Shown here piece by piece: positions 17,646-39,015 of a DNA stretch of 64,000 nucleotides. Under the pieces are notes generated by a model. It did no database searches, had not been told where the DNA came from, and worked only from the letters and a program-made list of their open reading frames with translations. Source of the stretch: an uncultured Bacillota bacterium (GTDB lineage Bacteria > Bacillota > Clostridia > Christensenellales > Aristaeellaceae); NCBI GenBank assembly GCA_963930055.1, contig CAWVKS010000008.1, forward strand, positions 500,694-564,693, read 5' to 3'. The position numbers and the translations under genes were made by a program. Position 1 is the first letter of the stretch. Each line of letters begins with the position of its first letter.

Positions 17646-17721
17646 GCTGATGTAGCTCAGTCGGTAGAGCGCATCCTTGGTAAGGATGAGGTCACCGGTT
17701 CAAATCCGGTCATCAGCTCCA
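17646..17721 (+). tRNA. tRNA-Thr (anticodon GGT)
   Basis: Manual cloverleaf: acceptor GCTGATG/CATCAGC, D-arm GCTC-AGTCGGTA-GAGC, anticodon stem CATCC/GGATG with loop TTGGTAA (GGT), T-arm ACCGG-TTCAAAT-CCGGT, and an encoded CCA. Confidence 0.9.
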
Positions 17722-17790
17722 GAAACCAGTCAGAAATGGCTGGTTTTTTGTGGTTTTGGGGCGGATTTTGCGGGAATTGGCGCTCTGCGT
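17672..17790. repeat. attL-side copy of a tRNA-3'-half direct repeat
   Basis: Sequence from the tRNA anticodon stem through the 3' end plus about 40-70 nt downstream is repeated, with a few mismatches, at 38677-38800. Confidence 0.7.
17725..17750 (+). terminator. Rho-independent terminator after tRNA-Thr
   Basis: Hairpin accagtcagaaatggctggt followed by TTTTTT. Confidence 0.55.
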
Positions 17791-17892
17791 TGCATTTGTC
17801 CGATCCCCTTGCGTCCAAATCCGGTTTTTGTCCAAAACCCTGTCCAAAATTCGCGTGCGCAGCGCCTGAAAAGCCCTGTGCCGCAGGCGATT

Positions 17893-19377
17893 TCAGACTT
17901 TGGCGCGTGTCCAGGATCCTGTCCAGTCACAGGCCAACCCATAAGCGCTTGCCACGGGAGTAGCGGTGTTCTGTGTTTCGTCTCTGCCCTTCACGTAATG
18001 CTTGAAGGTCATCGCCGCCGTGGTGTGCCCCGCCGCGCTCTGCACCTGCTTGACGTCCTTCGTGGCGTCATACAGGTCTGTGAGTACGGTCGTACGAAAG
18101 CGCCTTGGGGTGATCTTCTCGTCAAACCCTATCTCCTTCTGGATGCGTTCGCACATTCTCTGCATCATCGAATAGGACAGCGGCGCTTTTCCGCCAAGCA
18201 CAAATTCCTCGGGCGCGCCAACTTCCAGATAGCGAACGACCTGCGGCGCGAGGTCTAAAAAGCGTTCGCTTTCCTCCGTCTTGGTCGCCTTGAACACCGG
18301 CTGATTCCTGTCGGGGTGCGTAACGGAATGGCGAACGTGTATCTTCAGCGCGTCAAGGTCAATATCCATCCAGCGCAACCCCAGCGTTTCCTCGGGCCGC
18401 AAGGGATGCAGCGCTTGCAGCGCCAGAAACATCCTGTCCATCGGCTTTTTCAGCTTCTCAATGTTGGCGATCAAAAAGTGCATCTGCTCGACGGTGTACG
18501 GCTCTGTTGGCTTGCTGGCTCCGCCTGTAATGCGCAACCGGCGAGAGGCCAACGGATTTCTGGCGATGATGCTTTCTTCAACCGCCAAGTTGAAGATCAT
18601 ATTCAGGACGTTCCTGCATTTCATCTTTGTCGCTTTCGCGCCGCCCATGCCGTTGAACAGCTTCTGCGCGTCCGCCGTTGTAATGTCCTCGACATTTCTG
18701 CCTTCAAACGCCGGATAGAGGTAGCGCGTCAACTGGCGTTCATAGGTAATAGCCGTCGCCTGCGCCGTGTTTGACCCGGAAAACGTATCAAACCAGTATT
18801 GCGCATACGCCCTGAACTCGTGCTTTTGCGGCGCTTCAGGCGCTTTCGCAGCCGTGCAGCCCAGCGCCATGGACGCCTTGAGTACATATTCCTCTTCGCT
18901 GTTGGCTCGGATGCGCACCTCCTTTCCGTCGATCCTCAACCTGCGGTCGATCTTGGGTTTTCCCATTTCCATGCCCTCCTGTAAGGGCATATACTGTTCT
19001 TCATCCATGTTGCGACAAAGGAACCACATCCATTGTACACCACTGCGGAAGGCTTCGTCAAGCCGCTGGTTGCGTTCCCGCTGCCGATCCAGACGGCGTA
19101 TCAAATCGCGCATGGCAAGCGCCCTGTTCTTCTTCCGCAAGCGGCCAATCTCCATCGACGCCACCTCATTGACCTTGGCAAGCAGTCCTTCCACGTCGCC
19201 CTGCGTATAAACAGGAGCGGCAGGCTCGTCAATAAGTACCATTTCCAATGTATTTCCGCTCAACATATCGTCATCTCCATTTATCCAGTACCATTCCCCG
19301 TCGTGGGGTATATTCCACGCATTTTGCTCAACTTTACGCACTTTCCGGCAACTCCAGACTGTCAGAAGTGATTTCAA
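17893..19377 (-). CDS. Tyrosine-type site-specific integrase
   Basis: C-terminal catalytic region (…LRWMDIDL…HVRHSVTH…HTTAAMTFKHYV…) with R/H/R/Y-type motifs. Reads toward the tRNA-Thr 3' end, the typical island arrangement. Confidence 0.8.
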   Translation of the reverse strand: MKSLLTVWSCRKVRKVEQNAWNIPHDGEWYWINGDDDMLSGNTLEMVLIDEPAAPVYTQGDVEGLLAKVNEVASMEIGRLRKKNRALAMRDLIRRLDRQRERNQRLDEAFRSGVQWMWFLCRNMDEEQYMPLQEGMEMGKPKIDRRLRIDGKEVRIRANSEEEYVLKASMALGCTAAKAPEAPQKHEFRAYAQYWFDTFSGSNTAQATAITYERQLTRYLYPAFEGRNVEDITTADAQKLFNGMGGAKATKMKCRNVLNMIFNLAVEESIIARNPLASRRLRITGGASKPTEPYTVEQMHFLIANIEKLKKPMDRMFLALQALHPLRPEETLGLRWMDIDLDALKIHVRHSVTHPDRNQPVFKATKTEESERFLDLAPQVVRYLEVGAPEEFVLGGKAPLSYSMMQRMCERIQKEIGFDEKITPRRFRTTVLTDLYDATKDVKQVQSAAGHTTAAMTFKHYVKGRDETQNTATPVASAYGLACDWTGSWTRAKV

Positions 19378-20554
19378 GCCAGGCTTTTAGTATTTCCCGC
19401 ATCCTTCGGCTGGGAATATATAGCTTGACAGGAATACTATTGCGGATCGCCGACCGCCAGATCCACTGGAGCATATTGGAGAGCGCGTACTGATCGTCAT
19501 CTATGCACCCACCATGGTCGGCAAACCATTGCTTGACCGATGGATCTGGGAACATATTGACCAGATAGGCAAGATACACGCTGTCGCCCCATTCGTTCGT
19601 TGCCCGCGCATTGCAGGGGCAAAATCTGTTCTTCCAGCGGGTCTTTATAGTCGGATCTTTATATGAGTTGCCCTTAAACAATGTCCAGAGAACTTTGCCG
19701 CTGTCCACCTTCCAGATGTTCCGCAGTAAATTGTAGGTGTTGTCCATAAGCTTTTGCCATTCTGTGCCGCGTCTCTTCCACCAAGATGCGCTCAGCGCTG
19801 TTCTTTTATTGCCGATTTCGTTGAGATGTCCTTCATAAATCTCGAACATATCAACTATGCGCTGTTTTCTTCTGGCAAGGGGCTGTTCGCCTGGCACGAG
19901 CGTTTCGCCCTCATCGATGTGGCACACTTTATATCCAAGGCCATTTACCAAGAGATACTGCTCCAGACAGGAGCCCTTGAACAGGAATGTCAGTATGTAG
20001 ATTTCTCTAAACGCCTGAAAAATGCTGATGGGGAAAAGCCACAAGAGAGCGTTGCCCTTGTACTGAACGACGCACTTTGTTTTGATCTGACGCTTCAGTT
20101 CACGATGATTCCCTTCATAATCGCCCGCCGTCCAAATGACCCGTTGCGTGCCCTCTTCTACACGAGTATACCTTTGCAAATCCTCCAGATCGAAACGCGA
20201 GGCGTTCAGCTTTTCCACTACATCGATTACTTCATCAAGGATCAGCGTATAACCCTGCTCCTGAATCAGTGTAAGGATACGCTCCGTGACAGGAACGCGC
20301 TTGAACAGTTCATGTGTGGTTGCGATGCACGCGCCTTCCTCAAGGAGTTTAAGAAAATCCGCCTGTTTCGTTCTGCCCGCGTTTTCTTCTGTCGGCTGTC
20401 TGAAATGAGGAGAGGCGCTCAAAATGCGATTGACTTCGTCGATAAATGGCGTGCAATAGATAAATCGCTGTTCTTTATGGCAATTCATATACTTGATTGC
20501 CCAGTTCGTCTTTCCAGTACCCATAATAGAATCCACTGCGTATATCTGCGTCAT
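19334..20554 (-). CDS. P-loop NTPase, Zot-like / replication-associated ATPase of mobile elements
   Basis: Walker A (DSIMGTGKTNWAI) and Walker B (TLILDEVIDV). AT-rich codon usage distinct from the host. Confidence 0.5.
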   Translation of the reverse strand: MTQIYAVDSIMGTGKTNWAIKYMNCHKEQRFIYCTPFIDEVNRILSASPHFRQPTEENAGRTKQADFLKLLEEGACIATTHELFKRVPVTERILTLIQEQGYTLILDEVIDVVEKLNASRFDLEDLQRYTRVEEGTQRVIWTAGDYEGNHRELKRQIKTKCVVQYKGNALLWLFPISIFQAFREIYILTFLFKGSCLEQYLLVNGLGYKVCHIDEGETLVPGEQPLARRKQRIVDMFEIYEGHLNEIGNKRTALSASWWKRRGTEWQKLMDNTYNLLRNIWKVDSGKVLWTLFKGNSYKDPTIKTRWKNRFCPCNARATNEWGDSVYLAYLVNMFPDPSVKQWFADHGGCIDDDQYALSNMLQWIWRSAIRNSIPVKLYIPSRRMREILKAWLEITSDSLELPESA

Positions 20555-38362: not shown

Positions 38363-38676
38363 CGTTGACAAGATGTTGTATGATCTTGTGAATGCAGAAG
38401 GACTCTCTTTAATTGTATCATAAACATAACATTATATCTGCGAAGCGCAAACATTTAACGAGAATTTATCATGTAATCTGCTGGTTTTGCCGCACAGGTG
38501 TAGGACGCTGAAACGTCCGTCTCAAGGGTTCTCTCGAATTTAGGCTGTTCCAAGCCAGTTTGCAATGTCGACATCAAAACCCCGGAGTTTCCTCGCGCGG
38601 AGGCTCCGGGGCGATTTCGGTTCCTTGCCCTTGCATGGATGAATCCGCAATATACGCCCGGTCGCGTTTCTTCTTA

Positions 38677-38800
38677 CATCCTTGGTAAGGATGAGGTCAC
38701 CGGTTCAAATCCGGTCATCAGCTCCAGAAACCAGTCAGAAATGGCTGGTTTTTTTGTGGTTATGGGGCGGATTTTGCAGGAATGGGCGCTCCATCCTGCG
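38677..38800. repeat. attR-side partial duplicate of the tRNA-Thr 3' half plus downstream sequence
   Basis: catccttggtaaggatgaggtcaccggttcaaatccggtcatcagctccagaaaccagtcagaaatggctggttttttt… matches 17672-17790. Confidence 0.7.
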
Positions 38801-38848
38801 TTTTTGTTGACCTCTATCCTTCCGGGGCGGGGATTGTCCGTTTTTCCA

Positions 38849-39013
38849 TCAGCTTTTTCGCCCTTTGCCCCCTTCAAAAGCCCTGTGCCGCAGGCGTTTT
38901 CGGGGGGTTCCAAAATCAGTTTTCCCGTCAGGGGTCAACCCGTAGGCCGCGGCGATGGGAAGGGCGGTGTTGGCATGCGCCTGTCGGCCTTTTCCATAGT
39001 GCTTCAAGGGATA
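38849..39013 (-). pseudogene. Remnant of a second tyrosine integrase 3' end, truncated by the IS insertion
   Basis: DNA after the second att repeat parallels the DNA after the first (…aaaagccctgtgccgcaggcg…). The encoded …ANTALPIAAAYGLTPDGKTDF resembles the first integrase C-terminus …ATPVASAYGLACDWTGSW. Similarity stops at 39014. Confidence 0.45.
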
Positions 39014-39015
39014 AG

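Follow-up and report, generated by a model that had tools for sequence, protein, structure and literature searches.

Bacterial integrative elements can accrete in tandem at a single attachment (att) site, as has been described for integrative and conjugative elements (ICEs), integrative and mobilizable elements (IMEs), prophages and composite islands (PMC5704250, PMC13651849, PMC8978831). Here we analyze a locus of this kind in a 64,000-nucleotide stretch of an uncultured Bacillota bacterium of the Christensenellales (assembly GCA_963930055.1, contig CAWVKS010000008.1, positions 500,694 to 564,693 of the forward strand), referred to below as the window, in which a tRNA-Thr gene with anticodon GGT is followed by an integrase-bearing island (island 1), a partial copy of the same tRNA gene and the remnant of a second integrase. 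Our analysis indicates that two related integrative elements were very probably accreted in tandem at tRNA-Thr(GGT), and that the array then decayed through a deletion linked to an insertion sequence (IS). In the integrase sublocation class that Williams reportedly set out in 2002 in Nucleic Acids Research, the attP of an element contains a copy of the tRNA that starts at the anticodon stem-loop and reaches the 3' end.

Compared with the islands that tyrosine integrases are known to insert into tRNA genes, island 1 has the expected convergent integrase, an apparently regenerated tRNA and a distal repeat that starts at tRNA position 27, and it is likewise atypical in GC content and present in different host contexts. 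Several features by which a tRNA-integrated island is recognized (an adjacent tyrosine integrase, a distal repeat of the tRNA 3' part, an intact proximal tRNA and variable presence) were found. It is unlike those islands in the length of the block of identity between its two ends (113 nt), which takes in the terminator and about 35 nt beyond. With known accretion arrays, such as those built from ICEs, IMEs and cis-mobilizable elements (CIMEs), phage-ICE tandems and composite islands like CGI48 at tRNA-Trp, the locus shares related integrases, the direct orientation of its elements and a common att site; in its full form, as read from contig L011 of a relative, there would also be three att copies, with a nearly erased remnant resembling integrase 1 after the last of them. 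It is unlike these arrays in that neither island has recognized genes for conjugation or mobilization, and in that element 2 of the window appears to have been cut to about 330 bp by an IS-linked deletion, with two att copies left.

A tRNA-Thr gene and its partial copy bound island 1

The single tRNA gene that ARAGORN detects in the window is a tRNA-Thr(GGT) with an encoded CCA end at 17646-17721 on the plus strand, which forms the left junction (attL) of the array and is preceded by the promoter TTCGTAAAGATTTGCGCAAATCT...TGTATAAT. A 50-nt exact direct repeat (17672-17721 and 38677-38726), with only these two copies in the window, corresponds to the tRNA from position 27, the first base of the anticodon stem, through the CCA end; repeats of this length were absent from all of 100 dinucleotide-preserving shuffles. 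Gapped alignment lengthens the repeat to 17672-17784 versus 38677-38790 (113/114 nt, about 96% identity), with 3 substitutions and 1 indel in a run of T residues between the copies. A terminator scan placed the same terminator-like hairpin directly after the CCA end in both (17721-17748 and 38726-38753). Att copy 1 (17672-17784, plus strand) therefore consists of tRNA positions 27-76, this hairpin and about 35 nt more, and it alone belongs to a complete tRNA. Att copy 2 (38677-38790, plus strand) consists of a partial tRNA (positions 27-76) with its terminator and forms the junction between island 1 and a second island (island 2); the same junction is present in contigs L011-L018. Past the 113/114-nt repeat there is patchy homology to about 17970/38971, within which a conserved 22-mer, AAAAGCCCTGTGCCGCAGGCG, lies downstream of both att copies and resembles, in its minus-strand reading, an integrase terminator. 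The 50-nt att string had no match in IMG/VR.

These results agree with the initial annotation of this DNA, made from the letters of the sequence, which had reported that the 3' half of the tRNA recurs 21 kb away together with the terminator and some downstream nucleotides. Its coordinates were right to within a few bases, with the end of high identity at about 38790 and not 38800, and aligning the two regions shows that the second copy does run beyond the tRNA-like segment, through the terminator and the roughly 35 nt that follow.

Between the two att copies lies island 1 (17722-38676, 20,955 bp), whose extent is supported by the repeats, by GC content and by matches to its integrase-proximal part in L009 and to its right end in 23 contigs. 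The GC fraction of the island is 0.595, versus 0.664 in the 17 kb of upstream core, where core-like genes for LepA, PolA, CoaE, a solute-binding protein and a large protein with SH3, peptidoglycan (PG)-binding and NlpC/P60 domains are found. Every gene of island 1 is on the minus strand, starting with integrase 1, a tyrosine recombinase (17893-19266; 457 aa as called in the sister contigs L004 and L006, the open reading frame (ORF) itself reaching 19377). This protein has the Pfam domains Phage_integrase (PF00589), Phage_int_M and SAM_3 and matches PHROG 1 (integrase) at 1.6e-43; no match to it was found in IMG/VR. Its intact ORF runs towards the 3' end of the tRNA, 172 nt away, which upholds the pairing of an intact tRNA-Thr with an integrase that had been annotated here. 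Because both att copies are kept and the integrase frame is open, we infer that island 1 is potentially excisable.

Island 1 recurs at the same tRNA in a different chromosomal background. On contig L009 it lies beside a tRNA-Thr(GGT) gene, with 98% identity to the window in the integrase-proximal 1.7 kb (1649/1680 nt) and 96.6% over 6.7 kb. The promoter of the L009 tRNA is 82% identical to that in the window (76/93), and the genes upstream of it, for an SH3-domain protein and RsmF, have no nucleotide similarity to the window. Comparison of these sequences points to an island that is mobile between chromosomal backgrounds. The possibility raised with the initial annotation, that related genomes might carry the same 21 kb as core DNA, is not borne out, given the different flank in L009 and given that L005, a contig of the same species as the window, is without the island at this place. 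The protein encoded just upstream of the tRNA recurs exactly, and with the same arrangement, in L001, L004 and L006, so the locus in the window is not an assembly artefact.

An integrase remnant ends at an insertion sequence

When integrase 1 was used as a tblastn query, a single further match was found in the window, at 38927-39004 (26 aa, 61.5% identity, E = 8e-5), covering the ...KHY...AAYGL C-terminus of the integrase. It belongs to a remnant of a second integrase (integrase 2; 38901-39009, minus strand) that comprises the last 35 or so codons, including the catalytic-tyrosine region LKHY. At the DNA level this remnant matches the 3' end of the intact 357-aa integrase gene of L011 with 97% identity, the match ending at 39009, and the stop codon of the remnant is mutated (TCA to TCG on the plus strand). 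The C-terminal integrase fragment (...AAYGL...) that had been spotted after the second att copy is thus confirmed at both the protein and the DNA level. Between att copy 2 and the remnant is a diverged form of the integrase-proximal arm, and in every instance of the att downstream arm an integrase gene or an integrase remnant follows.

The homology of the window to the L011 array stops at 39009, one base before the inverted repeat of an IS (39010), and nothing else of integrase 2 or island 2 was found within the 64-kb window. IS elements of the IS256 family have target-site duplications of 8-9 bp flanking their terminal inverted repeats. The element in the window (39010-40362, plus strand; Pfam and inverted-repeat analysis) has its left inverted repeat at 39010-39036 and a transposase gene at 39111-40298 whose product is a Mutator-type DDE enzyme (PF00872 Transposase_mut, 2.9e-108, positions 9-371 of 379). 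It resembles the family in this full-length Transposase_mut match and in its likely dimensions, a length near 1.35 kb and terminal inverted repeats of roughly 27 nt. It is unlike the family in having no duplication, a poor right repeat and a better, inverted copy of its left end 3.4 kb away, which suggests rearrangement. The right end, at about 40328-40362, is weakly inverted-repeat-like and contains an indel, and no target-site duplication was found for either candidate right end; the missing duplication and the weak right repeat fit a rearranged copy of the IS. The inverted copy of the left repeat (26/27 positions; 42457-42483, minus strand), found by repeat search and alignment, is a solo IS end that marks a second IS-associated breakpoint. 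For the pair of ends at 39010-39036 and 42457-42483, either a second IS copy has been lost, or the two ends flank a unit of 3.5 kb in which an endolysin-like gene lies.

With its start codon corrected, the transposase was found at this locus only, on 5 contigs, and there is therefore no second copy by which the ends of the IS could be defined. Exact look-ups of a long form of the transposase and of the tape-measure protein encoded further to the right returned no record, and the start codons used for these two are probably wrong. The IS-truncated form of the array is common to L007, L012 and L017, at 99.9% identity.

Relatives carry a fuller array

Searching for exact matches to a 78-aa gene, located at the right end of island 1, yielded 23 contigs; among these, L011, L013-L016 and L018 have an att copy after the end of island 1 and then the full-length 357-aa integrase 2. 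On L011 the order is the end of island 1, att2, an 8.1-kb island 2 with the intact integrase, att3 and a host efflux-adaptor gene, such that att2 and att3 bound island 2; the end of this array that has the intact tRNA comes from another contig of this type, L009. After its integrase, island 2 has genes for a TM2/SHOCT protein, small helix-turn-helix (HTH) proteins, a DEAD/ResIII helicase, a small resolvase and others, and no conjugation or mobilization genes were recognized on either island. Since the homology to this array ends at the IS repeat, island 2 would once have been present in the window and would since have been lost, apart from about 330 bp. Following att3, L011 has a stretch of 259 nt (933-1187) that is 88.8% identical to window positions 17677-17934 and includes 13 codons of an integrase-1-like 3' end; from its sequence, this stretch appears to be a third, almost erased element before the efflux-adaptor gene.

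The two integrases are 58% identical over 344 aa and share their target: integrase 1 lies at tRNA-Thr in the window and in L009, and integrase 2 lies between att2 and att3 in L011. The integrase 2 family has at least 1,248 metagenomic proteins (E <= 1e-40). One homologue, P0038 (71% identical to integrase 2), is encoded about 184 nt from the 3' end of a tRNA-Thr(GGT) gene in L102, L105, L108 and L109, in surroundings unlike those in the window, though these four contigs may share a host genome.

Each island has also been found without the other. An island-2-like element occurs without island 1 in L021, and in L019 and L020 the cargo of island 1 is fused directly to the efflux-adaptor gene, without an att copy and without island 2. 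The islands are thus separable, but both of these forms are decayed and have no clean att sites. L021 was considered as a clean single integration of island 2 and rejected, its homology ending exactly at the CCA end of the tRNA with no tRNA there; it is a decayed or relocated copy.

Further variation was seen in individual contigs. In L013 and L014 (5181-6420) a different IS256-family element, with a 412-aa transposase and no nucleotide similarity to the IS in the window, interrupts the TM2/SHOCT gene of island 2, and island 2 has therefore been struck by IS256-type elements more than once. In L008 (1726-1830) an integrase-1-like gene (97% identical and apparently frameshifted), with its arm and tRNA positions 28-76, adjoins a 27-nt hairpin insert, after which there is a 14-nt identity to the tRNA D-arm and no acceptor strand. 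The L008 DNA beyond is of low GC content and encodes a WYL protein and a PG-binding-RCC1 protein; the junction may represent a decayed tRNA, an attP or one more tandem junction.

History of the array

Under the reading favored here, tandem accretion followed by IS-linked decay, each element would carry a tyrosine integrase and, adjoining it, an attP with a copy of the terminator and of the tRNA segment that begins at the anticodon stem and ends with CCA. Because such an attP carries the 3' part of the tRNA with its terminator, recombination with the chromosomal tRNA would regenerate a transcribable tRNA at the left and leave a partial copy at the right junction. The crossover may be placed in the anticodon loop, TTGGTAA, as the match to the tRNA sets in at position 27 in att2, and inside the anticodon loop in att3 of L011; such a position would agree with the sublocation class mentioned above. 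Island 2 would have begun at att copy 2, and the IS256-family element, together with a deletion or rearrangement, would have removed the rest of it except for the integrase-proximal arm and the integrase remnant; island 2 would be dead in this genome. That a second island had entered the regenerated att site and was later disrupted by the IS was already proposed in the initial annotation. Both the accretion and the truncation by the IS hold up, through L011 and the breakpoint at 39009/39010, while the order of the integrations cannot be read from the sequence.

Several observations weigh against this history. The IS is without a target-site duplication and its right end is ambiguous, so the mechanism of the deletion is only inferred. 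No clear excised circle (attP) was seen among the contigs; in L008, integrase 1, the arm and the core are joined to different DNA. A repeat search found no third att copy within the window that would mark the right limit of the array in this genome. An empty tRNA-Thr site (attB) was not found among the contigs compared. In L005, homology ends 400 nt before the tRNA, which a simple integration model does not explain. Lastly, islands 1 and 2 occur together in at least six contigs and may have arrived as one composite unit.

This last point can be developed into an account in which the two islands form one composite element that entered once, via the outermost att, the internal att being a relic of accretion in an earlier host. 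We regard this as possible but somewhat doubtful. Both islands are present on at least six contigs that come from different samples (L011, L013-L016, L018), with 92-97% identity across the junction, and co-transfer of accreted tandems is documented (PMC13651849, PMC5704250). Composite entry would, however, still be tandem accretion, just earlier, and the elements are separable, as L021 on the one side and L019 and L020 on the other illustrate. The window by itself does not discriminate between composite entry and two events. It is far less probable, indeed hardly credible, that the second partial tRNA arose by local segmental duplication or homologous recombination and that the integrase-like stretch after it is coincidental. 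Such an origin could draw on the presence of just two copies in the window and on the shortness of the remnant (26 aligned aa, E = 8e-5), but the repeat begins exactly at the anticodon stem, and the sequence that follows matches the 3' end of a complete integrase gene on other contigs with 97% identity. Moreover, the array represented by L011 appears to have three att copies around two integrase-bearing units, and a homologue of integrase 2 is found at tRNA-Thr(GGT) in other hosts.

The position of the tRNA locus itself raises a separate question. L005, which came up in look-ups of the NlpC/P60 protein and of its 90% cluster, is 98.7% identical to window positions 8581-17241, its homology ending at the stop codon of the NlpC/P60 gene; beyond this point (L005 8662-11953) it encodes PfkB and RmuC, with no islands there and no tRNA anywhere on its 12 kb. 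The comparison with empty-site strains that had been suggested for this locus therefore gives a divided answer: L005 is without the island, but it is also without the tRNA, and is no true empty site. The variable block of this species thus has its left edge 400 nt before the tRNA gene, and either L005 has undergone a deletion or the tRNA locus was repositioned in the lineage of the window. A synteny search of a species-level genome collection found two relatives, L002 and L003 (78-80% protein identity), neither with a tRNA after the NlpC/P60 gene, and the position after this gene is a variable region across the genus. In L002 (about 80% protein identity), a CRISPR array (5680-6679) lies directly downstream of the orthologous NlpC/P60 gene.

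It could accordingly be argued that the block from 17242 onward, tRNA included, is one variable segment that was moved or deleted by rearrangement, and that the tRNA was not the primary target here. The L005 breakpoint at 17241 and the relatives without a tRNA after NlpC/P60, one of them with a CRISPR array, speak for this explanation. However, it addresses where the tRNA locus lies and not how the islands were joined, and the att repeats and integrases explain the junctions independently. L001, L004 and L006, which are 95-99.7% identical to the window in 17242-17600, share its arrangement, and homology links the tRNA promoter to its counterpart in L009, in which the tRNA adjoins core genes. 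We consider such a rearrangement unlikely. Accretion at tRNA-Thr(GGT) with later loss of most of island 2 thus remains the reading that we prefer.

Island 1 carries a TIR, SIR2 and SPFH gene cassette

Island 1 contains a tightly packed cargo operon (22953-37668, minus strand), characterized by Pfam matches, a transmembrane scan, likeness to PDB sequences and the names of homologues. From the 5' end, which is at the high coordinates, it encodes a ribbon-helix-helix (RHH) protein, a TIR-TM-RCC1 protein (TM, transmembrane helix; 1122 aa), a SIR2/AbiH-like protein (330 aa), an SPFH protein with zinc ribbons, a 229-aa membrane protein, a TIR-RCC1 protein (824 aa) and a second TIR-TM-RCC1 protein (1651 aa). 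The three TIR proteins are paralogues, each with an N-terminal zinc ribbon, TPR repeats, a TIR domain and then C-terminal RCC1 propellers, and in the 1122-aa and 1651-aa proteins a single transmembrane helix is predicted to separate the N-terminal part from the propellers. Pfam matches were obtained to TIR_2 (about 1e-10) and SIR2_2 (3.2e-6). The putative catalytic glutamate of the TIR domain, in the motif WVKNEW, aligns with that of the plant L6 TIR domain (E = 0.009), and among PDB sequences the RCC1 region resembles BLIP-II. The number of 114-nt RCC1 repeat units varies between contigs, giving proteins of 1651 versus 1427 aa, and of 1122 versus 1129, 1280 and 1325 aa. The SPFH protein matches Pfam Band_7_1 and has seven zinc ribbons, and at window positions 31128-31388, three tandem 87-nt units (74-85% identical) encode zinc-ribbon modules at its C-terminus. 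The transmembrane scan classes the 229-aa protein as a multi-pass membrane protein. Homologues of the SIR2 protein number at least 1,040, with lengths of about 300 aa and an AbiH-family annotation in some cases; among PDB sequences it had no match.

The closest described counterparts of this operon are Thoeris, with a SIR2-domain ThsA and one or more TIR-domain ThsB proteins, and lactococcal AbiH, the latter by virtue of the AbiH annotation of some homologues of the cargo SIR2 protein. As in Thoeris, a SIR2-type gene shares an operon with several TIR genes. Unlike in Thoeris, the cargo SIR2 protein is without a SLOG domain, the TIR proteins are of 824-1651 aa and have zinc ribbon, TPR and RCC1 regions, genes for the SPFH and membrane proteins are interleaved, and no ThsA or ThsB profile of PADLOC matched in the cargo even at E <= 5. 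Set beside both comparators, the operon is part of a mobile island and the putative TIR catalytic glutamate is kept. The operon matched no model of PADLOC or NCBIfam, which rules out Thoeris or another catalogued defence system at the profile level, and a full-text literature search found no described bacterial TIR-RCC1 defence system. The idea of a conserved multi-gene system was weakened by a 46%-identical SIR2 homologue in a chromosomal context without TIR or SPFH neighbors; conservation of the cassette thus does not extend to family depth, and its role in defence is a hypothesis. We tentatively suggest, as a rather speculative proposal, that the operon may be an undescribed membrane-anchored immune module, in which the propellers would sense a phage or envelope signal and the TIR and SIR2 domains would act on NAD+ as effectors. 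The TIR-TM-RCC1 topology may be called receptor-like and is reminiscent, by analogy, of Toll-like receptors. The proposal also draws on the change in RCC1 repeat number between strains and on the co-transcription of the three paralogues with genes for the AbiH-like SIR2 protein, the zinc-ribbon-rich SPFH protein and the small membrane protein.

The remaining genes of the island lie to either side of the operon. Adjoining integrase 1 is a gene for a 406-aa P-loop protein (19334-20554, minus strand), identified by a GTGKT motif in its translation and by a Pfam YonV_C match in L001 and L004, with an 80-aa HTH protein beside it. At the right end, two small overlapping genes, of 78 and 81 aa (37732-38203, minus strand; called in L007 and L011-L018), have no Pfam or NCBIfam match; that they form a toxin-antitoxin pair is a guess.

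Prophage sequences to the right of the insertion sequence

Between the IS and the solo IS end (40363-42456) there is an endolysin-like gene (41463-42422, PHROGs) and ORFs of no assigned family. Further to the right is a fragment of an older prophage (prophage A; 43145-47427, plus strand; PHROGs and blastp), with a Dit gene (43145-43864), an inserted block of HTH and membrane-protein genes and a Tal-like gene (Tal A, 45061-47427). In blastp comparison, Tal A lacks about 350 C-terminal aa relative to a 64%-identical paralogue (Tal B, 55048-58356), and the missing piece was not found elsewhere in the 64-kb window.

The point of truncation of Tal A coincides with a 36-nt sequence (47409-47444, plus strand) that forms the junction with a second prophage (prophage B) and contains the motif AGAAATTGATACAATCTGGCGAAATA; the junction was defined by self-BLAST, blastp and the likeness of this motif to L023. 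In L023, a 67%-identical phage contig of IMG/VR, a motif like AGAAATTGATACAATCTGGCGAAATA is located about 200 nt downstream of the serine recombinase gene, and we take the motif, judging from its sequence, to be phage-borne. Self-BLAST also revealed a direct repeat of the 36-nt sequence (35/36) at 40464-40499 on the plus strand, which is probably the end of a further degraded prophage; the repeat itself is probably an att arm of phage origin, shared by that end. A 28-nt motif on the serine-recombinase side had no match in IMG/VR.

Prophage B runs on the minus strand from 47445 to past the end of the window. At its end in the window are two tandem large serine recombinase genes, 47532-49211 and 49124-50422 (47532-50422 in all, minus strand; PHROG 95 integrase, 2.5e-151 and 1e-119), with 187 relatives in IMG/VR. 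The rest of it (50694-64000, minus strand; PHROGs and ORF translations) encodes an endolysin, tail proteins, Tal, Dit and the tape measure. A serine-recombinase prophage thus appears, from the arrangement of these sequences, to have inserted into a tail gene of an older prophage fragment, with a further degraded copy nearby. The DNA from 39010 onward is accessory, and no tie to the tRNA att site was found for it in the window. The initial annotation had gone further in describing everything to the end of the window as stacked at one tRNA; this part is not supported, as there is no further att copy and prophage B abuts a truncated tail gene and not a tRNA.

Significance of the locus

Tandem accretion at a tRNA gene is an ordinary and well-known route by which bacteria gain foreign DNA, and the locus adds no new principle to it. 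It provides a clean comparative example of gut Clostridia, in the form of Christensenellales-like metagenome-assembled genomes, piling up and then eroding mobile DNA at one tRNA gene, with successive stages caught: an intact island, a second island that is intact in relatives and IS-truncated in the window, and a third that is almost erased. From it, too, a family of integrases specific for tRNA-Thr(GGT) can be defined, whose metagenomic members exceed 1,000. The more interesting part of the locus, and the one most worth following, is the portable TIR/SIR2/SPFH cassette that current defence-system catalogues do not recognize.

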